Shown here: positions 9,777 through 61,947 of the stretch, one piece after another | Numbering within the stretch: position 1 is the first letter of the stretch | Layout: each line of letters opens with the position of its first letter | IMG/VR virus record: IMGVR_UViG_3300042346_000326 | Coordinates: 1-64,000 of that record | Length of the DNA stretch: 64,000 nt | From: a virus | Direction: 5' to 3' (one strand) | Translations under genes and position numbers: made by a program | Notes under the pieces: model-generated | The model's input: only the letters and a program-made list of their open reading frames with translations | Told to the model about the DNA's origin: nothing | The model's database searches: none

Positions 9777-10361
9777 ATGAAGAGAATCATCGTATTACCG
9801 TTTAAAGATGCAGATGTAACTGATGGTCTAAGACGGTTGCTTCAACTAAACTCCAATGTAACGGTTGTTCTGCCTGTAGTACCTTCATTTTCTAAGTTCA
9901 CTGAAACCTCACATCAAGTATTGACAGACAGCAAAGCCAAGTATCACTTGTTCTTTACAGATGGCGATGAGGGAATCGACAACCTAATTCTCAATGCTAA
10001 CGACATAACGATGTGCAGTAATCCGACCAAAGAGATTCTTCGAGAGGTGACATCTGAGGATGTTCTTGCAATGGTTTGGGACGAGTGTATTGAGGCTCAT
10101 CTGACCCTCCATGCCGTTGAAGACCTTGCAGTTGAGACATGGAATATCGAAGATGGGTTGGACGTCATTGAAGTCGACTTCGACGACGAAGATGATACAG
10201 ATATCCTCTATGAAGAGATGCAGGAGGCTCTGAGTAACTTTATTGAGTCATTTGCCACGTACATCACTGCTGGAGTCCTGGATGTTATAACTAAGACTAT
10301 TGAGGCTAAAATAAAAGAAGACGAAGGAAAGAAAGATATAAACCCGTTCAACAAGGAGTAA
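9777..10361 (+). CDS. Hypothetical acidic protein
   Basis: ORF with AGGAG RBS before ATG 9777. Confidence 0.6.
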   Translation: MKRIIVLPFKDADVTDGLRRLLQLNSNVTVVLPVVPSFSKFTETSHQVLTDSKAKYHLFFTDGDEGIDNLILNANDITMCSNPTKEILREVTSEDVLAMVWDECIEAHLTLHAVEDLAVETWNIEDGLDVIEVDFDDEDDTDILYEEMQEALSNFIESFATYITAGVLDVITKTIEAKIKEDEGKKDINPFNKE

Positions 10362-26363: not shown

Positions 26364-26630
26364 ATGCCAAATTCTGTTGCACAATTTGGTGACGACGATT
26401 CTGGCTTTAACGCTTATAAATCTCCAAGGTTAGACATCGACTCACCTGTATCGTATGGTTCTGCAACTCGTGGAACATACGAATCACGTACTGCGTGGAA
26501 AACACGAGACATGAGTCGTGGAGGTCCTCTTCCTTATTCGAAGAGGAGTGCAGGTTCTGTATACAAATTTGATGATGACTCTTCTCCTAATCTTCCACGC
26601 TCAGACAAGGGTGTAGGAAGAAATGAGTAG
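26364..26630 (+). CDS. Hypothetical protein (MPNSVAQF...)
   Basis: ATG directly after the upstream stop. Confidence 0.5.
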   Translation: MPNSVAQFGDDDSGFNAYKSPRLDIDSPVSYGSATRGTYESRTAWKTRDMSRGGPLPYSKRSAGSVYKFDDDSSPNLPRSDKGVGRNE

Positions 26631-27354
26631 AAATGAAGAATTTAGCGTTGGCAATAATGTCTCTGTTCCTTTAGCATCTGAAGGCGCTGCTCGTTATGCA
26701 AGAGAAGCAGGTCTTAACCGACCTAATCGTTTTGATAATGTAGTTGTTAATACACCTCAAGCAAGAAAAATTGCACAGGAATACCAAGAGGCTCCGTCTT
26801 TTGACCCTAAAGCCATTCCTCATTACAAAGCAATGGCAGAAGAAACAAAACGTCAATTTGATTTTATGACTCGTCCTAAAGCAAAAGGTGGACTTGGAGT
26901 TGATGTCCAAGTAACACAACATGACCCATATGCAAAAGCCGCTCATATGATGCAAGACGCTGGACAAGGAAGATTTAAAGTTTTTTCTTCAGCATCAACA
27001 GGTGGTCACCCATATTTTTCAAATGAAGAGAACGACATGTTTCGTGCAGTACATGACTTTTTTGGTCATGCTGCAACAGGAAGAGGATTTGACCCACATG
27101 GCGAAGAGGCTGCCTTTCGGAGTCACCACGCTATGTTTTCTCCTGTGGCTCGACCTGCCATGGCAACGGAAACTCGTGGACAAAACAGTCTTTTAAATTA
27201 TGGAGATAGAAAAGGCGAGTTCCCAGAGCAGAAGGTAGCCGTCCTAAAGTCGTCTGGACTAATAACTCCAATTGGTCGTCGTGCAGAGTTTCTTCGTTCT
27301 GCTGTTGAGGCTAAAGCAGCCCACGAAAAAATGTTACGAGGGTTCAAGTCATGA
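26623..27354 (+). CDS. Phage hypothetical protein with HxxxxH motif
   Basis: NDMFRAVHDFFGH...GEEAAF...ETRGQNS. Confidence 0.6.
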   Translation: MSRNEEFSVGNNVSVPLASEGAARYAREAGLNRPNRFDNVVVNTPQARKIAQEYQEAPSFDPKAIPHYKAMAEETKRQFDFMTRPKAKGGLGVDVQVTQHDPYAKAAHMMQDAGQGRFKVFSSASTGGHPYFSNEENDMFRAVHDFFGHAATGRGFDPHGEEAAFRSHHAMFSPVARPAMATETRGQNSLLNYGDRKGEFPEQKVAVLKSSGLITPIGRRAEFLRSAVEAKAAHEKMLRGFKS

Positions 27355-48852: not shown

Positions 48853-49117
48853 TTGTTTTCCTTTCGTGGTTCTAACTCATTGTGAATCAAGCAGAACCAT
48901 GACTCTTTGTCGTATGCGACAAGTGTGTGTTCAGTATTCATTTAACGAGCCTTTCTTTGTGGTCTTTACGGACATGATTGGTAAGAGTTTCAGAAGCGAA
49001 ACCGCTACGAACCTCTAGTTCTTTGTCGCATACAGGGCATTGAACAATTCTTTGCGCCATGTAAGTAACTCCTTTTCTCTGTAATGGGTATTCGGTATTA
49101 AGTTGTTTATTCAGTTG

Positions 49118-49291
49118 TTATTTAGTTGTATCTCGATAAGGAGTCCATGTAGTCCAGCGAGATTCGCCTTCTACATTTATCCGTAACTTAACTAGGTCGT
49201 TGCGAACAGGAACTATCTCTTCAATGATTCCTGTAATGCGTGACTTAGTAGAAGTGAATAAGTCACCGATTGCGTATTTATCTTTTTCCAT
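49118..49291 (-). CDS. Small SH3-like hypothetical protein (57 aa), first gene after the ncRNA candidate
   Basis: MEKDKYAIGDLFTSTKSRITGIIEEIVP...RWTTW; purine-rich RBS; not in ORF track. Confidence 0.6.
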   Translation of the reverse strand: MEKDKYAIGDLFTSTKSRITGIIEEIVPVRNDLVKLRINVEGESRWTTWTPYRDTTK

Positions 49292-49369
49292 TGTGTTGCC
49301 TCTTTCCTTATGTAACCACCGCGATTGTCACCGAATCTCATTCACAGAATCGGTATCGGTGACAATCAC

Positions 49370-49945
49370 AGAAAACACATAAGCGAAATTACTAAGTATG
49401 AATAACTCGTTTATTCAATTACTGTCATTGTTCTTGGAACAGATTGGTTACTGTCGGCACTAACTATTGTTAGCAATCCATAGGTAATGAATAACTGAGT
49501 TACACAACTTTCCGTAACTCGTCTAAGCCTTCTGCTATTCACAATAACTTTCGTTAATGTTGATTACGATTTATTAGGAGTGCGCTCTGCTCGCTTGTAA
49601 CTTTTGTCGCTCGTAATTCGATACGCGGTAAGTTTGAGTATCGAATTAGTTATCGCGGATACAAGGTCTTCGCATAGAAGTCACTTCGTGCGTTCCGTTA
49701 TTCGTAATTTAATTTAGTCGCGTAATGCGTAAATCATTTTGCCAATTTAATTTTGAGTATCACTCGCGGTCTTATGACCTATTAAGTAAATTGAATAACT
49801 GCCGATAGTAAATTGGGATAATCACAATTACTAAATCGTCATAACAGTTTTTGCGTAATGAATCTAAATCGCAGATTCTTAGTCACTATGTAATTTTCTA
49901 AGTTCGAGTGGGTTCTTTGGAGAGCCTCTCGGCTCTACCTCTGAC
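49370..49945 (-). ncRNA. Candidate large structured non-coding RNA (~530-580 nt)
   Basis: No credible ORF; 5'-3' closing stem, many hairpins, GAGA and GAAA tetraloops, long-range pairings. Confidence 0.6.
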
Positions 49946-49954
49946 CACGCCCCA

Positions 49955-49963
49955 AGTATGCCA
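49955..49963 (-). promoter_or_regulatory. Putative extended -10 promoter of the minus-strand transcript
   Basis: TGG-CATACT on minus strand just upstream of the GAGA hairpin; no clear -35. Confidence 0.45.
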
Positions 49964-50039
49964 TAGATTGACCGACTCAGTTTGCCACCCCTATTAAGAG
50001 CGTGTTTATGGGGCTTTTAGCCCCTAGAGCCCCTGCCCC

Positions 50040-50810
50040 CCAAGTAACCCACCTGCTATCACCACCGCTTCAGAAGAGTTAGTTAGTGAATGAGCGTGAG
50101 CCCCCACATAACTAATCGCGCCAAAGAGTTTTTCTTTTCAGTAATGACTAATACAAAGATAGTAATAGATAGATAGAAGTTAATAATAGAGATAGATAAA
50201 TACCCACATAAGTAACTCGGTAACTACACTCAATTAGTCAATAATCAAATAAACACATAACAAAGTTTGTAATAGCAAATAATTAAGTAACTTCTGACCT
50301 TCTGCTGTCGTATCTAAGCGTAGAAGAGTAAAAAGTAAGTAACTCCGCCGTTTAATTCTGGAAGTTACTTACTGACTAACTCAGATAGCCCGTAACTAAC
50401 TAGCCACCACCACCGCCATAACCGCCACCTGATACATCTTGTCGTTACAAGGAGAAGTGACTCATCTACCTACTAGGGAATAACTGAGTTAGTCATAGTG
50501 ATAGAAGATAATTGAAACAATTAGTAATAGATACATAACAACACATAACTAATAACGCGTTGCGTTACTAATGCGTGATTATGTGATAACAACTGACTAG
50601 GTGACTCGTTGGCTTGGTGGTATCCGCACAGACCATGTTGCTAAATAAACAGTAGCCGAAGTGTTGTCACCAAAGTTGTCACCAAGTTATTTGTTACACC
50701 TGATAACAACGCATGAGTTGAACAACAACCACCTGATTAGTAGTCAGGTGGTAGGTGTTCTCATGTGTAACTAACAACAACCCCCCCACCATTAAACGGA
50801 AAACGCCAAA
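50040..50810. repeat. TAAC-rich non-coding region (possible genome terminus/packaging region)
   Basis: Many TAAC(T/A) words, GTTGTCACCAA twice in tandem near 50663, C7 tract near 50780. Confidence 0.45.
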
Positions 50811-50871
50811 TGAACAGCCAGGTGAGACACATGGTTGAGGGGTTGGGGCCAGGGCAGTAGCCAAAAGACGG

Positions 50872-51141
50872 CTAGTGGCCCTCGTCAATGGTCCACGCCT
50901 TATGGGTAGGAGAGTCCTTTATCATCTTTACGGTCTTATAGCCTGTAAGCCATTTAAGGGCATCCTTTAACGCCTGGTCTGATGTCTTAGATTGCCCTTT
51001 CATATACGTATAAGGCTGCTGTATCTCTGGATTAGTGGGGTATTCATGCCAACAGTCAGTTCTGATTCCCCAATGCCACACAGATTTACGGTTTGTAACG
51101 AGGATTGTAAATTGGCCATTCACACATTTAGTGTAGTACAT
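50872..51141 (-). CDS. Hypothetical protein
   Basis: ORF from MYYTKC; start uncertain. Confidence 0.35.
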   Translation of the reverse strand: MYYTKCVNGQFTILVTNRKSVWHWGIRTDCWHEYPTNPEIQQPYTYMKGQSKTSDQALKDALKWLTGYKTVKMIKDSPTHKAWTIDEGH

Positions 51142-51192
51142 GCTAGTGCGGTTGACGATGTGGGGCCAAGGCAGTAGCCGTAAACTAGCCAC

Positions 51193-51498
51193 ATGGCAGA
51201 CTTTCTTAGCAGAGTGCAGTTCAAAAATCACTCTACTCCCTATGAGGACAAGATTGGGGCCCATTTAGGCAAGCAGCAGGTTGGATGGCTAGACCTTGAT
51301 AAAGATACGGGTGTAGTTAATGAGGTATATGTTAAGGAGCAGCACCAGGGTAAGGGTATCGCCACAGGCATGTGGAAGCACGCCCAGGAGTCTGGCTTAA
51401 ATCCAAGACATTCTGATACTCGTTCCGAGTCTGGAGATGCTTGGGCGCAATCTCTTTATCAAAAGGGACTGGCTCCAGAACCAGAGAGTATGGAATAA
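51193..51498 (+). CDS. GNAT-family acetyltransferase-like
   Basis: VYVKEQHQGKGIATGMW (motif A); HSDTRSESGDAWA. Confidence 0.8.
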   Translation: MADFLSRVQFKNHSTPYEDKIGAHLGKQQVGWLDLDKDTGVVNEVYVKEQHQGKGIATGMWKHAQESGLNPRHSDTRSESGDAWAQSLYQKGLAPEPESME

Positions 51499-51824
51499 TG
51501 AGCAATCTAGGCCCTCAATTCGACCCCTTACAAGAGGCTAGGAGTATCAAGAACAATAAGAGCCGCCTAACTAGGACCCTAAAGGCCGTAGGACTAGAGC
51601 CACGGAGACGATTTAAGTCAAGAAGCGGAAAGGTATCGATGCAATCTGCAGGATTGGTATACACCGCTACAGATAGCAACAGTACAACGGTCCACTACGC
51701 CACTGGTAGTCCTGGAGATAACAACGTGGAACCATATCATCAGCGGATACTAAAGGCCCTTATCGATGCCGACTACAACGCTTCAATGAAGGATGGCAAA
51801 ATTCACGTACAGCACTCTATGTGA
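51498..51824 (+). CDS. Hypothetical protein (MSNLGPQF...)
   Basis: TAATG coupling. Confidence 0.55.
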   Translation: MSNLGPQFDPLQEARSIKNNKSRLTRTLKAVGLEPRRRFKSRSGKVSMQSAGLVYTATDSNSTTVHYATGSPGDNNVEPYHQRILKALIDADYNASMKDGKIHVQHSM

Positions 51825-51836
51825 TAGGCTCTGTCT

Positions 51837-51998
51837 ATGAGCATCGAGAAGCGAATCGGCAAGGTATGGATATATTTTGGTTGGAACTTTAGAAGAGTTG
51901 CATTTGGAATCTCAGTAGACCGCTTTGAGATAGCGTTTGATTTTCTATTCTGGTACTTCACAATTGAATTTTGGCCAATATTTTCCAGTAACGACTAG
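51837..51998 (+). CDS. Small aromatic-rich protein (53 aa)
   Basis: Leaderless-type start after TAGGCT; not in ORF track. Confidence 0.45.
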   Translation: MSIEKRIGKVWIYFGWNFRRVAFGISVDRFEIAFDFLFWYFTIEFWPIFSSND

Positions 51999-52062
51999 TA
52001 CCTCCCCTAGCAGATAAGATTTCACGCTATCTTTTTTAGGCAGTAGCCTCATAATACTCTTT

Positions 52063-52179
52063 ATGAGTAGCCTGTCTGCAAACCAATTCGTAATGCCTAA
52101 AGAGCAGTATGTAAATGTCGCCATGCAGATGATGCCTCCATCAGGGGCCACTAACACAGCAAGTAGCACCAAGGCATGA
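52063..52179 (+). CDS. 38-aa peptide (MSSLSANQF...)
   Basis: CATAAT 7 nt upstream; ATGA-coupled to next gene; carries the shared tag. Confidence 0.45.
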   Translation: MSSLSANQFVMPKEQYVNVAMQMMPPSGATNTASSTKA

Positions 52180-52709
52180 GCAGATACGCAGAGTTCAGTG
52201 ATTCAGCAGGTCGCCACTATGTAGAAGGCGAGATGCCCGAACAAGTCAAATATCGTCACAAGTTATCTAACTTTGGAGAACCTAGGCGCATCTCGGTCTA
52301 TGACCCTAGTGACTCAACGCCACGTCGTGCTAGTGAACAGGGCCATATAGAAGAACATCCAAAAGGTGAACCTGGTCTTGTGGGATATGCAGATATCTAT
52401 CGTGAAAAAGGCGGCGAACAATTCGGCACTCTAACAAATGCAGAGGGAAAGAAAGAGCCACTCATTAGTAAGGCCCATACCAATATCGGCTTTGTAACAG
52501 TAGAACCCAAACATCGTGGTGGCGGCATATCAAAACAACTAATTAACTATGTAGATAAGACCACACCAAAAGATGCCCAAGTAAATTTTGGTGAGATTGC
52601 ACACATCGGCATGGCCAAGATTGCTTCAAAGATGCAGGCAGAAAACCCAAGTCGTATTCATGCAAAAGACTTGTGGTACTACAAAGACAAACTTAAGGAA
52701 GGCCAATGA
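52176..52709 (+). CDS. GNAT-family acetyltransferase-like
   Basis: IGFVTVEPKHRGGGISKQLI. Confidence 0.75.
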   Translation: MSRYAEFSDSAGRHYVEGEMPEQVKYRHKLSNFGEPRRISVYDPSDSTPRRASEQGHIEEHPKGEPGLVGYADIYREKGGEQFGTLTNAEGKKEPLISKAHTNIGFVTVEPKHRGGGISKQLINYVDKTTPKDAQVNFGEIAHIGMAKIASKMQAENPSRIHAKDLWYYKDKLKEGQ

Positions 52710-53101
52710 AGAAGACGCCTCCTCCTAAAAATCCTAATGACAGAAGAAACCTGTCGGGGGTTCAGTTTAGATACTTTCCACCTGAAGATAAGTACTCATT
52801 TCATGAACTACATGCCATCTCTCCAGATGCTTATAACAAGAACAGCAGAACAGGAAAAGGATTAGTCGTCGGGCGGTTGCAGTGGCATCCAAAGTCTGGT
52901 GAGGTCAATTGGGTGCGCACACACGAGAACTATCGAGGCCTAGGTGTCGCATCTACGTTATGGGAAAAGGCTAATAAGTTATCTGCCGATACTGGAATAA
53001 GAGCACCCAAACATTCTAAGCACCGCACTGACCAGGGCGATGCGTGGGCAAAATCTGTCGGGGGCGTTACGCCATCACGAGCCAACTATGAGGAGTGGTG
53101 A
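52706..53101 (+). CDS. GNAT-family acetyltransferase-like (paralog of 51193)
   Basis: VRTHENYRGLGVASTLW; HSKHRTDQGDAWA. Confidence 0.8.
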   Translation: MKKTPPPKNPNDRRNLSGVQFRYFPPEDKYSFHELHAISPDAYNKNSRTGKGLVVGRLQWHPKSGEVNWVRTHENYRGLGVASTLWEKANKLSADTGIRAPKHSKHRTDQGDAWAKSVGGVTPSRANYEEW

Positions 53102-53604
53102 TGAGTAACCTAGGTCGCCAGTGGAAACAGGACCCACTCATCATGACGCCAAAAGAATTAGAAGGCCATGTTCAAGATACTCTAAAGTCAAATCCATTTA
53201 AAACAACTACAGAGAGAATTACAGATAACCCACATGGCGCTTGCTATGACGCTTCCTGTTTAATTCATGGCTATCTGCCACATGGCTCACACGTCGCTGT
53301 CTATGGTGGAAAGCACCACGACCCAAAGTCTACAAATCCAGGAGACTGGTACAGCAATCACTTTGTACATCACGTACCTACTACAGAGGGTATGCACGCT
53401 GTTGATTTGACGCATCGTCAATTTGATTCATCAGAGAAGACTCCCCTAGTAGAGCCACTACAGAAGTTTCAAGATAGAAACGTAATGAAGGGCTTTAGAA
53501 CTCTGCGCACTGATGCAGAGCACGCAAAGTTATACACAGAGGGTAGAAAGACCAAGCCTCTAGGTAAGAAGATGGCTAGAGAATTGCGCAGGGATGTCAC
53601 ATGA
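53101..53604 (+). CDS. Papain/transglutaminase-like protein (Cys-His-Asp)
   Basis: GACYDAS...NHFVH...AVDLTHRQF. Confidence 0.55.
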   Translation: MSNLGRQWKQDPLIMTPKELEGHVQDTLKSNPFKTTTERITDNPHGACYDASCLIHGYLPHGSHVAVYGGKHHDPKSTNPGDWYSNHFVHHVPTTEGMHAVDLTHRQFDSSEKTPLVEPLQKFQDRNVMKGFRTLRTDAEHAKLYTEGRKTKPLGKKMARELRRDVT

Positions 53605-53882
53605 GTGCATCAGATAACCTATCAAGCCAATTGTTTCATGGAACAAGGGCAAAGATAAAGGGACAGATAATTAACCCAGGTCCATCTGGATTTGCGTATG
53701 CAACAACTGACAGAGGTTCTGCAGAATTATTCGGCAAAACAAAGATGCCAGAAGGTGAACTAGGAGATAACAAGGTCTATCGCGTTATGTCATTAGGAGA
53801 AACGACTACCAAGCCAGGTAACTTTAAGGGTGAGACTCACCACATCTCCGACACTGGCTTCTTGATATTAGGTGAAGCATGA
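53601..53882 (+). CDS. ADP-ribosyltransferase-like (Arr/H-Y type)
   Basis: LFHGT...FAYATTD...A...VYRV. Confidence 0.65.
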   Translation: MSASDNLSSQLFHGTRAKIKGQIINPGPSGFAYATTDRGSAELFGKTKMPEGELGDNKVYRVMSLGETTTKPGNFKGETHHISDTGFLILGEA

Positions 53883-54307
53883 GCGCCCTATCTAACGAGT
53901 TATTTTTTGAAGCACATCGCGGACTTCGTCTAAAGGGCAAAGAAAAAGTTAATAAAGACGAATTAGGTATGCACTGGTCTGCAGATAGAGATAAAGCAGA
54001 TGAGTTTGCAACAAAGCACATAAATTGGCCTGAGTGGGAACATGGCAAGACTTATCATGCCCAGATACCTGTATCTGCTGTAGAGACTGGATTCACTCGT
54101 CTACGTGACAGTGGCTTCGCTAACTTTGCTGGTAAAGACCCATTAGGTGAAAAGGAAGTGCCAGTAAAAGAGGGCGCTACAGTAAAGGTCACAGGCGTTA
54201 CTAGCCATCGTAGAACATACCTAGGACCTAACAAGACCGTTAATCAGGGAACGGCATTGAAGTCACGTACCCGTCGTTACAACCCACCAAGAGAGATGAA
54301 GGCATGA
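53879..54307 (+). CDS. ADP-ribosyltransferase-like (R-S-E type)
   Basis: AHRGL...GMHWS...A..FA...EKEV. Confidence 0.6.
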   Translation: MSALSNELFFEAHRGLRLKGKEKVNKDELGMHWSADRDKADEFATKHINWPEWEHGKTYHAQIPVSAVETGFTRLRDSGFANFAGKDPLGEKEVPVKEGATVKVTGVTSHRRTYLGPNKTVNQGTALKSRTRRYNPPREMKA

Positions 54308-54489
54308 CTTGTCGTCATGTCTATGAATATGTTGGGGCGGCAATATGTCCCGCGTGCGGGCGCGATACGCACGAACCAGACACCGAACTTCATAACAAGT
54401 TGTTCAAAGAGCATTACGAGCAGGGCCGTCATCTGGTATACAAGTGTCCTGTAGAGGGCGGCACTATACGAGGTTGGTGGAGCATATGA
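54304..54489 (+). CDS. Small Zn-ribbon protein
   Basis: CRH...CPACG. Confidence 0.5.
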   Translation: MTCRHVYEYVGAAICPACGRDTHEPDTELHNKLFKEHYEQGRHLVYKCPVEGGTIRGWWSI

Positions 54490-54917
54490 GTGCACCTTTA
54501 TCTGAACCGTTGTTTCATGGTTCAAGCCATCCCTTTAACAAGGGCGACATTATTAAGCCTATGGAGATGGACCACGCACATGCCACAACAGATAAGGCAT
54601 ATGCCAATAACTACTCGACATTAGATGCAGAACGAGATTACAGTAGAGACCCAAAGTCTTTATTTACATATACCTACAAAGTCAGTCCTGTAGATGAAAA
54701 AGAGATGCACTCAGAGACAGAACCGTGGAGAACTGACCCAGTTAAAAAGAACCTACGTCTTGCTAAAGACATTCCTAATATCTATGTGTCCAAAAAAGGA
54801 TTTAAAGTAGAGGGCATCGAGTCAATGAGGGCGCACCCACAGATAGTTACAGATAACAAGGTTCTAGAGAACGCTCTGAGCGCTTGGAGACGAAAACGTG
54901 ACAGAGAAGAGTCCTAA
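54486..54917 (+). CDS. ADP-ribosyltransferase-like (Arr type)
   Basis: LFHGS...GDIIKP...AHATTD..YA..Y...YTYKVSP. Confidence 0.65.
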   Translation: MSAPLSEPLFHGSSHPFNKGDIIKPMEMDHAHATTDKAYANNYSTLDAERDYSRDPKSLFTYTYKVSPVDEKEMHSETEPWRTDPVKKNLRLAKDIPNIYVSKKGFKVEGIESMRAHPQIVTDNKVLENALSAWRRKRDREES

Positions 54918-55099: not shown

Positions 55100-55651
55100 A
55101 TGACAACAATCATTGGAGTTCAGTACGAAGACCACTGCCTATTTATGGCAGATAATCAAGTTACATTAGATGGTGGTCGTCGTTACAAACACCCCGATAT
55201 GAAAAAGATTAGCAAGGTAGGCGAATACCTTGTTGCAGGTTCTGGCGAAGTTGCACCATGCGATATTGCGCAACATCTATGGACGCCACCTGCTATGTCT
55301 GCCAAAGACAGAAAAGATACTTATCACTTTGTTATTGCTAAGTTGATGCCATCGCTACGCAAATGTCTTGAAGACAATGGCTACGATTTCGATGAAGGCA
55401 AATCTGACGGCAAGTCAGGTGAATCACGATTCAATCTGCTTGTTGCCGCTAATGGTCAGATATTCGACATTGCCGATGATATGTCGGTCTGTATGTCAGA
55501 TGCTGGCTTCTATGGCGTTGGCTCTGGCTCTCCATATGCATTAGGTGCTCTCTATGGTGGTGTTAAGCCAGAAAAGGCTATGGCTGTTGCTGAGAAGATA
55601 GATGTCAATACTTCTGGGCCGTTTCAGAAAGAAGTTCAGTACAAGAAGTAA
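55100..55651 (+). CDS. Proteasome-beta/HslV-like Ntn hydrolase
   Basis: M-TTIIG (N-terminal Thr), ADNQ, KKI, AGSG, GVGSGSPYALG, DVNTSG. Confidence 0.85.
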   Translation: MTTIIGVQYEDHCLFMADNQVTLDGGRRYKHPDMKKISKVGEYLVAGSGEVAPCDIAQHLWTPPAMSAKDRKDTYHFVIAKLMPSLRKCLEDNGYDFDEGKSDGKSGESRFNLLVAANGQIFDIADDMSVCMSDAGFYGVGSGSPYALGALYGGVKPEKAMAVAEKIDVNTSGPFQKEVQYKK

Positions 55652-59277: not shown

Positions 59278-61947
59278 TTGAAATTGCTGCGTGCATCCGC
59301 AGAACAATATGGTTTCTTTAGTCGTTTAAACTTTTTACTAGGAGCAGGATTTATTTATCTGCTTCTTTCGATTCTTCCTGCTTATGCAGAGGAAACAACT
59401 TCTGCACCACCTGCGCCACAAGAAACAACAGCGCCAACCCCAGAGCCCACACAAAGTCCAACGTCATCTACTTCTTCTCCTGAACCTTCTCCAACGCCAA
59501 CAGCCGAACCTTCACCGAGCGAAGCATCACCTTCACCAACACAAAGTCCAGAGCCAAGCCCAACCCCAACCCCAACAGAAACCACAGCGCCTGAGACATC
59601 TCCTACTCCTTCCACATCCACTTCGACTGAGCCCGCTCCAAGTCCAACTCCAACGCCAGAATCTTCGCCTGCTTCCACTTCAACTCCGACTCCAACTCCT
59701 GAACCTTCTCCAACTCCAACCGCGACCTCGACTCCAGCGCCAACACCCGCTCCATCTTCTGAGCCGAGTCCAACTCAATCACCGACTCCAGAGCCTTCAC
59801 CTTCCGCTTCAGTGGCTCCGACGCCCATATCCAGCCCAGAACAATCCCCGTCCCCAAGCAATACAACACAAACGCCGACTGCCACCACACCTGAAACACC
59901 TACAGTCACCTCCGTACAAGCAAAAATTGAGACGGCAACTGTAACGCTAAATGCTGCAATTGAATCGTCAACTGTCACACAACAAGCGGCTGCTGCTACT
60001 CAAATAACTGAGGCTCAAACTGCTATCACTGTGGCAGAGAGCGCCACGGTCACTGCTGTTGCTGCGCAGGCTACTGTTAATGCTCTTTTAGATGCGCCAG
60101 AAAACACAAAAGTGTACACAACTGATGGTTATGTGGCTCCCGTTGCTCCGCAAACACCCACAGTTACAACAACAACTTTGCCTGTGATGTACGACGCATC
60201 AACTAAAATTCAAACTCCTTTTGATATAAAAATGGGTGATGTGGTATACAACGGTCAGGGTGCAGATAGCCAAATTTATGTAACTTCAAAGGCAACTATT
60301 ACCTTTGGCACTGGAAACCATATCTGGTGGGATTTCCCTGCTGGACCAAGCATTTCAGTATTTGCCAGCGACTATATGAATGCTGGTCAAGGCACATCTA
60401 CTGTAGTAACTACCACAGATACAACTTTAGAAGTTGATTGGAACCTTAAAAAGTTTGGTGACAACAACAGCCCTATAACTAACATTAATTGGAAAATGAC
60501 TGTCAACCCTACAACTGGGGAATGGACTGGTATAGGAACTGTTGCTGGCAATACTACTAATCTTTGGTATCCGCAACGCACTGGTGTTAGAGAAACTGCA
60601 GGCGAGCCTATAAAACCAATGACAAATGTAACTAATGAGACCATTGCTGCGGCTCAAGAAACAGCGGCAACAAAACTTGCTACCGCAAATGCTTTAGCAA
60701 ATACTGCAGTAGAAAAAGTAGAAACCGCTGTTACAGTTCTTCAAACTCCGATTCCTCAAACTCCGCCGACTCCAACACCTGAGCCAACTCCCGCACCGCA
60801 GCCAGAGCCAACACCACAACCACAGCCAGAGACGCAACCACAGCCAACACCACAACCCGAACCTTCACCTGAACCTCCTACAAATCCGTCAACCGACCCT
60901 GCGCCAACCAATCCAACTCCTGAGCCCACGGTTCCAGGACCTCAACCTGAGCCTCAACCTCAACCAGAGCCTGTTGTACCGCAACCCGAACCAGAGCCTG
61001 AGCCTCCTGTGACGGAAGAGGATGACCCTGAAGAACCTGAAGTTGCTCCAGAGAATCCTGAAGAGTCTTCTGAAGAGGAAACAGAAAGTCAGGAAGAGGC
61101 TCCAGAGGATTCTCCTGAAGATGACACTCCCGAAGACACTCAAGACGATTCAGAGAGTCCTCAAGACACTCCTGAATCTTCCGATAATCAACAGCCAGAC
61201 TCATCAGAAGACCCTACAGACTCAGAAACAGAACCGACCCCAACAGAAGAAGAGACACAGCCCATATCGCCTGAAGAAGGCGACGAAACTGACGAGTCTT
61301 CTGTCGAACCCCAACCTGAAGAATCAGAAGAGCCAGAAACAGACAACCAAGAGCAATATAATCAGTCGGAAGAAACACAAGATACTCCTATCGTTGAACC
61401 AAGTAACCCAGAGCCTACACCAGAAACAGTTATCTCCGACGCACTTTCTGACGGTCAATTAACAACCGAAGAAAAAGAAGTCATAGTTACTGCTTTGGTC
61501 GCTAGTCTAGCACCAGGTGAGGCTATCTCTAGCGAAACTTTAATAGAGGCTGGAATTACTTATGAAGACTTACCTCCACAAACACCTGTTGACGTTAGAA
61601 CCGATGAGAACGGTAATGCAGTTATTATTACTGCAGAAGTTGCAGCCGCCCTTGAACTAATCGAAAATCCATCTGAATTAATTGGCGAATTATTTACTGA
61701 CCCAGGTCAAGTTCTTCTTGCACTGGGAAGTATCGGTGCAGATATGTCAGAAGAAGAACGAGAAGAAGCAACAAAGATGGTCGTAGCAACTGTAGTCGCT
61801 GCAGGTGCTGCTATTAATGCTGCAACAACCGCAGCAGCCGCAGCAGCCGCTGCTGCAACAACAACGGGAGGGTCAACTGGAGGCAGTAGTTCAGGTGGCG
61901 GAGCGCCAACTGGAGATAGCAAGGCAGTTAGGAGACGCCGCAAATGA
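59278..61947 (+). CDS. Large Pro/Thr/Glu-rich exported membrane-anchored protein
   Basis: Signal peptide (LPAYA), PT/PS repeats, beta-rich domain, PEPQ and acidic repeats, C-terminal hydrophobic helix then RRRK. Confidence 0.75.
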   Translation: MKLLRASAEQYGFFSRLNFLLGAGFIYLLLSILPAYAEETTSAPPAPQETTAPTPEPTQSPTSSTSSPEPSPTPTAEPSPSEASPSPTQSPEPSPTPTPTETTAPETSPTPSTSTSTEPAPSPTPTPESSPASTSTPTPTPEPSPTPTATSTPAPTPAPSSEPSPTQSPTPEPSPSASVAPTPISSPEQSPSPSNTTQTPTATTPETPTVTSVQAKIETATVTLNAAIESSTVTQQAAAATQITEAQTAITVAESATVTAVAAQATVNALLDAPENTKVYTTDGYVAPVAPQTPTVTTTTLPVMYDASTKIQTPFDIKMGDVVYNGQGADSQIYVTSKATITFGTGNHIWWDFPAGPSISVFASDYMNAGQGTSTVVTTTDTTLEVDWNLKKFGDNNSPITNINWKMTVNPTTGEWTGIGTVAGNTTNLWYPQRTGVRETAGEPIKPMTNVTNETIAAAQETAATKLATANALANTAVEKVETAVTVLQTPIPQTPPTPTPEPTPAPQPEPTPQPQPETQPQPTPQPEPSPEPPTNPSTDPAPTNPTPEPTVPGPQPEPQPQPEPVVPQPEPEPEPPVTEEDDPEEPEVAPENPEESSEEETESQEEAPEDSPEDDTPEDTQDDSESPQDTPESSDNQQPDSSEDPTDSETEPTPTEEETQPISPEEGDETDESSVEPQPEESEEPETDNQEQYNQSEETQDTPIVEPSNPEPTPETVISDALSDGQLTTEEKEVIVTALVASLAPGEAISSETLIEAGITYEDLPPQTPVDVRTDENGNAVIITAEVAAALELIENPSELIGELFTDPGQVLLALGSIGADMSEEEREEATKMVVATVVAAGAAINAATTAAAAAAAAATTTGGSTGGSSSGGGAPTGDSKAVRRRRK

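Follow-up and report, generated by a model that had tools for sequence, protein, structure and literature searches.

Why should a run of small genes that encode different folds begin with the same few amino acids? The question is raised by a cassette at positions 51193-54917 of IMG/VR virus record IMGVR_UViG_3300042346_000326, a complete genome of 97,380 bp with terminal repeats, the first 64 kb of which (64,000 nucleotides) form the window analyzed here. Eight of the ten cassette genes start with a version of one peptide, referred to below as the tag. A first-pass annotation of the window, whose open reading frames (ORFs) and N-termini were all found in place, had proposed that this peptide sorts a swappable set of enzymes into the phage head. 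Our preferred reading is that the tag acts as a portable signal for addressing or docking. The cassette genes, which include several ADP-ribosyltransferases (ARTs), are separate ORFs encoding 38 to 177 amino acids, as follows:

51193-51498, plus strand: GNAT of 101 amino acids with the degenerate tag MADFLSRVQF; Pfam Acetyltransf_7, Acetyltransf_10 and Acetyltransf_1 match above their cut-offs; paralogue of the GNAT at 52706
51498-51824, plus strand: tagged protein of unknown fold, 108 amino acids, basic, tag MSNLGPQF; no family match, and a singleton in our census
52063-52179, plus strand: tagged protein of 38 amino acids, MSSLSANQF followed by a conserved VMPKEQYVNVAMQMMPPS body; family kept in relatives
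52176-52709, plus strand: GNAT-like protein of 177 amino acids with the variant motif MSRYAEFSDSAG ("tag B"); Pfam GNAT matches at 18-19 bits, below cut-offs
52706-53101, plus strand: GNAT of 131 amino acids, with a 14-residue Lys/Pro-rich extension and then RRNLSGVQF; Pfam Acetyltransf_1 above its cut-off
53101-53604, plus strand: papain-like Cys-His-Asp enzyme of 167 amino acids, tag MSNLGRQW; invariant C48, H87, H90 and D102
53601-53882, plus strand: Arr-like minimal ART of 93 amino acids, full tag MSASDNLSSQLF fused to HGT; assigned by family alignment
53879-54307, plus strand: R-S-E class ART of 142 amino acids, tag MSALSNELF; assigned by invariant residues, AlphaFold2 and Foldseek
54304-54489, plus strand: untagged four-Cys zinc-ribbon-like protein of 61 amino acids; conserved inside the cassettes of 19 of 34 sources; without a Pfam or PHROG family
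54486-54917, plus strand: Arr-like ART of 143 amino acids, tag MSAPLSEPLF fused to HGS; assigned by family alignment

The full form of the tag is seen in relatives of this phage, where it follows the 12-residue consensus M-S-A-S-[D/E/R]-N-L-S-x-x-Q-F, with shorter forms reading MSNL[SG]xQF and MNNLNQKQF. The tags in the window appear to be worn or shortened copies of this consensus, and the one that the first-pass annotation recognized at 51193 is present, albeit only in a degenerate form. Within the tag, Ser8 is almost always kept (65 of 67), and the final residue is F, W, L or M. The frequent Met-Ser start arises because ATGA stop/start overlaps join most of the cassette genes; the remainder of the motif is not accounted for in this way. 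The tag is hydrophilic and soluble enzyme domains follow it directly, and a Tat or Sec signal peptide was ruled out, the tag having no hydrophobic region. Two families carry the tag behind a Lys/Pro-rich extension of 14-20 residues. AlphaFold2 gives predicted local distance difference test (pLDDT) values below 50 to the first residues of the tag (residues 1-4 in the model of 53879 and 1-8 in that of 53101), and the tag is accordingly modeled as a short, disordered linear peptide.

The motif is strongly concentrated at N-termini and in one place. Across the 97-kb genome, plausible genes with LS...F in their first 22 residues are found in the cassette only. When ORFs were called by simple ORF rules and a stricter set of motifs was applied, six of 147 greedily called ORFs matched, all of them in the cassette, against 0.19 expected from shuffles (maximum 3, n = 2000), and the enrichment over shuffled ORFs that the first-pass annotation had implied is borne out; the tagged genes at 51193 and 52063 are missing from the 147-ORF call, their places having been taken by antisense ORFs. 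We extended this to a census that covered two complete relatives and some 60 related contigs besides the present genome; loci of relatives were fetched by way of the papain-like gene, a back-translated tag pattern and an HslV-like gene that neighbors the cassette. The strict back-translated pattern proved too strict, returning only 11 loci from IMG/VR. A relaxed core motif begins in the first 20 residues of 180 of the 1511 unique ORF products, while the internal rate predicts 0.006 per protein, an N-terminal enrichment of about 19-fold, and nearly all copies of the tag are N-terminal. With the tag removed, about 172 clean proteins group into about 30-35 BLAST families, and more than a third of the tagged proteins are ARTs. 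The tag is thus conserved in homologues, and in a fuller form than in the window itself.

Each of the three complete genomes confines its tagged real genes to a single hypervariable island. The flanks of the island keep 75-85% nucleotide identity between relatives, and its content is a gene-by-gene mosaic, in agreement with the earlier idea of an effector cassette with fast turnover.

Codon usage within the tag speaks to the level at which it is conserved. Its conserved Leu uses all six codons, its conserved Ser uses both TCN and AGY, and both codons of each of Asn, Gln and Phe are in use. Scrambling of this kind shows that the peptide, and not the DNA or RNA, is under selection, and it implies that this purifying selection has been long-term. 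An RNA- or DNA-level signal, whether for translation coupling or as a recombination site, is ruled out by the scrambling at Leu and Ser. Within the R-S-E ART family, compared over 106 stand-alone representatives of clusters at 50% identity, the Leu of the tag, conserved at 83%, ranks among the 20 best columns, and values of 73-75% are seen for its S, A, S and F, with the catalytic Arg and Glu-x-Glu at 97-100%. Simple paralogy is likewise ruled out, by the roughly 30 BLAST families, by four verified folds and by an ART domain that occurs without the tag in giant proteins, as described below.

The first-pass annotation had cautioned that the final LF of two tags is also part of the catalytic LFHG strand of an ART. 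Homologues resolve this caveat, and with it the possibility that the tag is nothing other than that strand. Some members of the Arr-like family read MSASDNLSKRQF-PPMYHGT or MSAEDNLSGNQF-KLYHGS, with a complete NLSxxQF ahead of a separate [FY]HGT strand; in other members, including both window genes, the arrangement is ...NLSSQLF-HGT and the Phe of the tag doubles as the first residue of the strand. The R-S-E family behaves in the same way, with MSASDNLSKNQF-ELHRG in some proteins versus MSNLSNELF-FEAHRG in others. A close homologue of 54486 in locus L005 bears the full tag MSASDNLSQPLF, and in the family of 52706 (n = 21) one relative has a plain MSASENLSKAQF tag in place of the extension. The description of the tag as a separable, swappable N-terminal module on different folds therefore holds. 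The same cannot be said of the suggestion that the 38-residue product of 52063 is little more than a tag, as its 29-residue body (VMPKxQYVNVAMQMMPPS...) is a conserved family. The start of 52176, which had been listed as a variant of the tag, does differ from it; it represents a distinct second motif, MSRxxEFSxG, which is common to unrelated families.

The fold assignments on which this argument draws, namely three GNATs, three ARTs (the two Arr-like ones being probable assignments) and one papain-like enzyme, are supported by Pfam, family alignments, Foldseek and invariant catalytic residues. The remaining tagged families have no recognizable fold. Fold searches with the two models gave weak E-values, and the assignments combine these with the invariant residues. 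The model of 53101 (pLDDT 72) finds the catalytic domain of SseI as its best Foldseek match (probability 0.99, E 7e-3, TM-score 0.39-0.41), followed by other thiol-triad folds. For 53879, the model (pLDDT 82) best matches pertussis toxin S1, the TreX Rhs toxin and cholera toxin A1 (probability ~0.9, E ~0.03); in its family R14-G15 and G30/W33 are invariant, with S or T beside W33, and E91 and E93 are nearly so. This family also has a conserved C-terminal tail, R.RTRxYNPPREMKA (window 54250-54307 and homologues), whose coding sequence doubles as a purine-rich stretch before the ATG of the next gene. In the Arr-like family of 53601 and 54486, H11-G12 is invariant and Y64, S102 and F106 are nearly invariant. 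Pfam Arr-ms matches five of its 12 members (best E 2.8e-4) and ART-PolyVal two of the 12, neither window protein being among the Arr-ms matches; the best PDB match of the family profile is rifampin ADP-ribosyltransferase (Arr), at E 0.36.

One of the new observations made here is that five tagged families recur, untagged, as modules in giant polyvalent-like proteins of 700-3700 amino acids. A profile of the R-S-E family, searched against 1.84 billion representatives with E up to 0.001, returned 490 proteins. Among the best 150 of these 490 matches, 113 are small stand-alone proteins and 37 are giants (~700-3700 amino acids). The tag motif is present in 80 of the 113 stand-alone representatives, most of the remaining ones having close variants. 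Each of the 37 giants contains two to six copies of the R-S-E ART domain, and searches with hidden Markov models made from the tag-less bodies of tagged families found further modules: Arr-like in 11 of the 37, 52706-type GNAT in 16, PSEYG-family in 11 and YHRTD-family in six, with Pfam adding NUDIX. The modules in the giants are not preceded by the tag, the motif occurring there at chance level only. About a dozen of the giants, which include P0026, P0034 and P0037, start with M(x)DL[LV]xHF, a faintly tag-like sequence.

In this sense, the cassette corresponds to a polyvalent-type protein whose modules are unlinked. Polyvalent proteins are described as combining ART and GNAT domains and as being delivered together with invading DNA, and those encoded by phages have been proposed to be packaged (Iyer, Burroughs, Anand, de Souza and Aravind 2017, PMC5512222). 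The two systems share a repertoire of ARTs, GNATs and peptidases and a proposed co-delivery, and differ in that two to fifteen domains are fused in polyvalent proteins, whereas here separate genes each carry a 12-residue tag. The link to the giants lends indirect support to co-delivery of the tagged effectors.

The phage itself is a BRock-like myovirus from lake water. Its genome encodes a contractile-tail virion (baseplate wedge, sheath, portal, large terminase and an HK97-type major capsid protein, or MCP), together with PolA, helicases, ribonucleotide reductase, a DpdA-like transglycosylase, an HslV-like peptidase, Hsp20 and a CobS-like AAA+ ATPase whose adjoining gene is possibly CobT-like. 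Among cultured phages, Streptomyces phage BRock and its kin come closest, with identities of 61% for the MCP and 36% for PolA. MCP homologues of 50-69% identity lie mostly in Actinomycetota genomes, with a few in metagenome-assembled genomes labelled as other phyla, and near-identical DNA was found in lake-water metagenomes of many studies; together, these occurrences suggest that the host is probably a freshwater actinobacterium. No RNA run was among the datasets listed as containing the locus. The cassette had no nucleotide match in the phage collection, tblastn with 54486 gave no match among cultured relatives, and neither the tag nor any cassette module was found in positions 1-90 kb of BRock. 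Regions around MCP homologues in actinobacterial genomes held no cassette.

The left edge of the cassette is also marked by a short repeated sequence, of which two copies stand before tagged genes:

51170-51186, plus strand: promoter- or operator-like motif, GGCAGTAGCC, one base and TAAACT, ending 6 nucleotides before the ATG at 51193
52039-52048, plus strand: second copy of GGCAGTAGCC, followed by CATAAT-like bases (motif stretch to 52054), upstream of 52063

The exact 10-mer GGCAGTAGCC occurs in this genome at 50853 (50853-50862), 51170 and 52039 only, and in the two complete relatives it is again found at the same cassette edge only, each time followed by TAnnnT and ATG. The spacing is GGCAGTAGCC, 1-2 nucleotides, TAnnnT, 6-7 nucleotides and ATG, and the whole could be a private promoter or operator. 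The placing of TAnnnT 6-7 nucleotides before the ATG suggests that cassette transcripts may be leaderless; in a crude census, many genes appear to have no Shine-Dalgarno sequence. A scan of 48.5-64 kb with promoter and terminator consensus sequences gave counts at or below shuffle expectation.

Under the explanation that we propose, the cassette would be a polymorphic library of small host-modifying effectors (ARTs, GNATs, a papain-like enzyme and small proteins of unknown fold), all of them translated as individual polypeptides that carry the tag as an N-terminal label. One common receptor would read the tag, and any gene recombining into the island behind it would consequently be routed alike. 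The destination would be the assembling head, where the tag may bind scaffold, portal or the inner capsid surface, and the effectors would later be injected along with the DNA. The tag would be kept on, with no proteolytic removal, and its function would be akin to that of the T4 internal proteins and Alt.

Several known systems resemble this arrangement in part. The internal proteins of T-even phages have a common N-terminal packaging signal by which their genes have been found (PMC12373910), and T4 Alt, an ART, is packaged in the head and injected (PMC5512222). As with the tag, the signal of the T-even proteins (Ip1-3 and other Ips) is a short N-terminal peptide on small (~5-20 kDa), otherwise unrelated proteins of a hypervariable locus, whose new members are recognizable by the signal alone. 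The T4 signal, MKTYQEFIAE, is borne by Alt as well as by the internal proteins, and a comparison by eye with MSASDNLSxxQF shows no resemblance beyond an aromatic residue. Other differences are that neither a head protease of the gp21 type nor a phi-x-E cleavage site was found here, that the tag is sometimes fused directly to a catalytic strand, that the virion location is a proposal in the present case, and that the phage is BRock-like with a probable actinobacterial host. Polymorphic toxins, such as MuF-fused phage toxins and those of the LXG/type VII secretion systems, are similar in having a constant N-terminal address, variable payloads, tandem cassettes and rapid turnover. Their constant part is a folded trafficking domain, whereas here it is a 12-residue linear motif; moreover, immunity genes are not evident here, and no secretion system or MuF domain was noticed, no targeted search having been made. 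Encapsulin cargo-loading peptides are short and disordered and anchor unrelated cargo, uncleaved, inside an HK97-fold shell. They are usually C-terminal and have a different consensus, and anchoring of the encapsulin type is the best-fitting mechanism if the tag stays on.

Counted in favor of virion loading is the occurrence of solo tagged-family genes between terminase and portal in two distant relatives (MCP identity 57-62%), one with an Arr-like gene (L078:5007-5789) and the other with a 52706-type GNAT (L094:6074-6481). The N-termini of these two solo genes are weakly tag-like, reading MNPNVNAAQF.. and MELQGLQF.., respectively. A number of points weigh on the other side. Comparison of tagged proteins revealed no conserved residue or cleavage motif after the tag, and their charge shows no useful bias, the proteins not being systematically basic. 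The order of the head genes in genome coordinates is portal (68861-70597), a 254-amino-acid protein taken as the putative scaffold (70719-71483) and MCP (71517-72644); PHROGs and Pfam identified no prohead protease family among the head genes, where a divergent one is possible, the 254-residue protein has no family match, and the N-terminus of the MCP does not suggest a long propeptide. In several ARTs the Phe of the tag lies within strand beta-1 beside the catalytic His or Arg, so that cleavage there would harm these merged enzymes. More than 10 kb separate the island from the head genes; the island starts a rightward gene block beside a divergent, ORF-poor region and is equipped with a promoter-like motif of its own, a layout no less suited to early genes than to late ones. 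Lastly, for most phage-encoded polyvalent proteins, packaging is the proposal of the authors and not a measurement (PMC5512222). Because of the missing T4-type features and the layout of the island, we regard virion loading as the leading destination of the tagged proteins but as somewhat short of probable. More tentative still is the broader proposition that an uncleaved 12-residue N-terminal peptide serves as a portable signal for virion loading or another form of delivery in a large clade of freshwater actinophage-like viruses, where it would replace covalent fusion.

As an alternative to delivery, the tag might act as a short linear motif through which various enzymes and inhibitors, once expressed early, are tethered to a single host hub, RNA polymerase, the ribosome, the sliding clamp and the nucleoid being examples; we consider this rather unlikely. 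The tag is nearly identical across lineages whose HslV-like proteins are at 64% identity, as would be expected with a slowly evolving host machine, but the MCP is likewise 92-98% conserved in these lineages and a phage receptor could be equally constant. The promoter-like motif, with its TAnnnT 6-7 nucleotides before the ATG, would fit immediate-early, leaderless expression, and T4 ModA and ModB are early ARTs that are not packaged. Against this, payload chemistry so diverse, together with peptides of 38-60 amino acids, is more typical of a common delivery route than of a common target. The motif is also unlike the clamp-binding consensus QL[SD]LF or a PIP box, as its spacing and key Gln do not fit, a comparison made by eye and unscored, and this particular likeness was rejected.

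Improbable, in our view, is that the tag is a handle for controlled proteolysis, that is, a degron or pro-peptide read by the HslV-like peptidase or by host Clp or proteasome, which would limit the lifetime of toxic early effectors. The peptidase gene is a neighbor of the cassette:

55100-55651, plus strand: HslV/proteasome-beta-like peptidase, context gene; phrog_1040, Pfam Proteasome

In 25 of 34 sources the cassette has an HslV-like gene no more than a few kb away, some of these loci having been retrieved via an unrelated gene; the count is biased by the loci that were retrieved via HslV itself. Indeed, many loci were fetched via genes adjoining the cassette, which inflates co-occurrence counts in general, and the synteny may be mere common descent. 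The last residue of the tag (F, W, L or M) is what chymotrypsin-like sites prefer at P1 and, if exposed, what the bacterial N-end rule prefers. However, HslV-like genes also occur in tagless phages, namely DSL-LC01 (no tags in the surrounding 24.6 kb), G004/G005 (8 kb on each side) and phAPEC8-like coliphages, and no HslU-like unfoldase was noticed. Their presence in untagged phages weakens the case for the peptidase as an obligatory partner, and it is kept as a candidate tag reader whose place in the system is contextual.

We hold it to be quite improbable that the tag is a recognition or modification site, in the manner of the leader of a ribosomally synthesized and post-translationally modified peptide, for an enzyme or adaptor encoded in the island. 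The candidates for such a modifier would be a GNAT acetylating the N-terminus or the zinc-ribbon protein 54304. GNATs are present in every cassette, the zinc-ribbon gene is inside the cassettes of 19 of the 34 sources, and Ser8 is nearly invariant, but no untagged family is common to all cassettes and the 52176-type GNAT is found in only eight of the 34 sources. The zinc-ribbon gene, moreover, stands directly upstream of an Arr-like ART gene in the cassettes inspected, which suggests that it is a partner of that gene only; its product may be a partner, regulator or antidote of the Arr-like ART.

Very improbable, finally, is a functionless tag, which would be either left over from repeated duplication or recombination at a shared 5' end or a translation signal read at the RNA level: the ATGA-coupled genes, many apparently without Shine-Dalgarno sequences, the homology blocks between relatives that often start just past the tag, and the large share of ARTs, on which the tag may have arisen, would all accord with it, but the fully scrambled synonymous codons, including the TCN/AGY switches of Ser, largely refute it, and the conservation of tag columns in the ART family and the unrelated folds of the bodies argue against it as well.

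If the tag is an address label, host-takeover or anti-defense effectors in abundant, uncultured lake phages could be listed from sequence, and about 30 families, most of them without known function, are already flagged by it. It would also link two delivery architectures for the same weapons, one giant fused protein versus many small tagged ones. Should virion loading by the tag be true, it would constitute a second type of phage cargo signal, one that is independent of a head protease and possibly usable for capsid loading: adding the tag would allow any cargo to be loaded, and the whole injected repertoire could be read from sequence. Should the destination lie elsewhere than in the virion, the tag remains a remarkably clear case of a short linear motif, strongly selected on dozens of unrelated phage proteins, and experiments have a well-defined target in its receptor, be it a host hub, a protease or the capsid.

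The second N-terminal motif deserves separate mention. The form seen at 52176, MS[RK]xxEFS.G, is common to three further unrelated families, and as MS[RK]xxEFS[HDV]G the motif heads four unrelated families, its carriers being window 52176-52709 and 26623-27354, L008:1430-1651 and L056:5555-6016. One of these families is outside the cassette (phrog_3170, of unknown function). In the papain-like family the second motif aligns with the main tag, of which it may be a diverged form.

A tag-like peptide is also seen within capsid proteins. The MCPs of Streptomyces-prophage relatives (L078-L107, at about locus position 10253) contain an internal TNALSASQF just before a long helix, which we take from its position alone to be the spine helix. 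Residues 88-96 of the MCP of this phage (genome 71778-71804) read TNALTAEQI, and the likeness to the tag may be due to chance. Elsewhere in the window, an 889-amino-acid ORF at 59278-61947, downstream of the lysis genes, is without any Pfam or PHROG match. About 2 kb at 49100-51190, between the leftward and rightward gene blocks, is without credible ORFs, and this stretch keeps 70-89% nucleotide identity among relatives.

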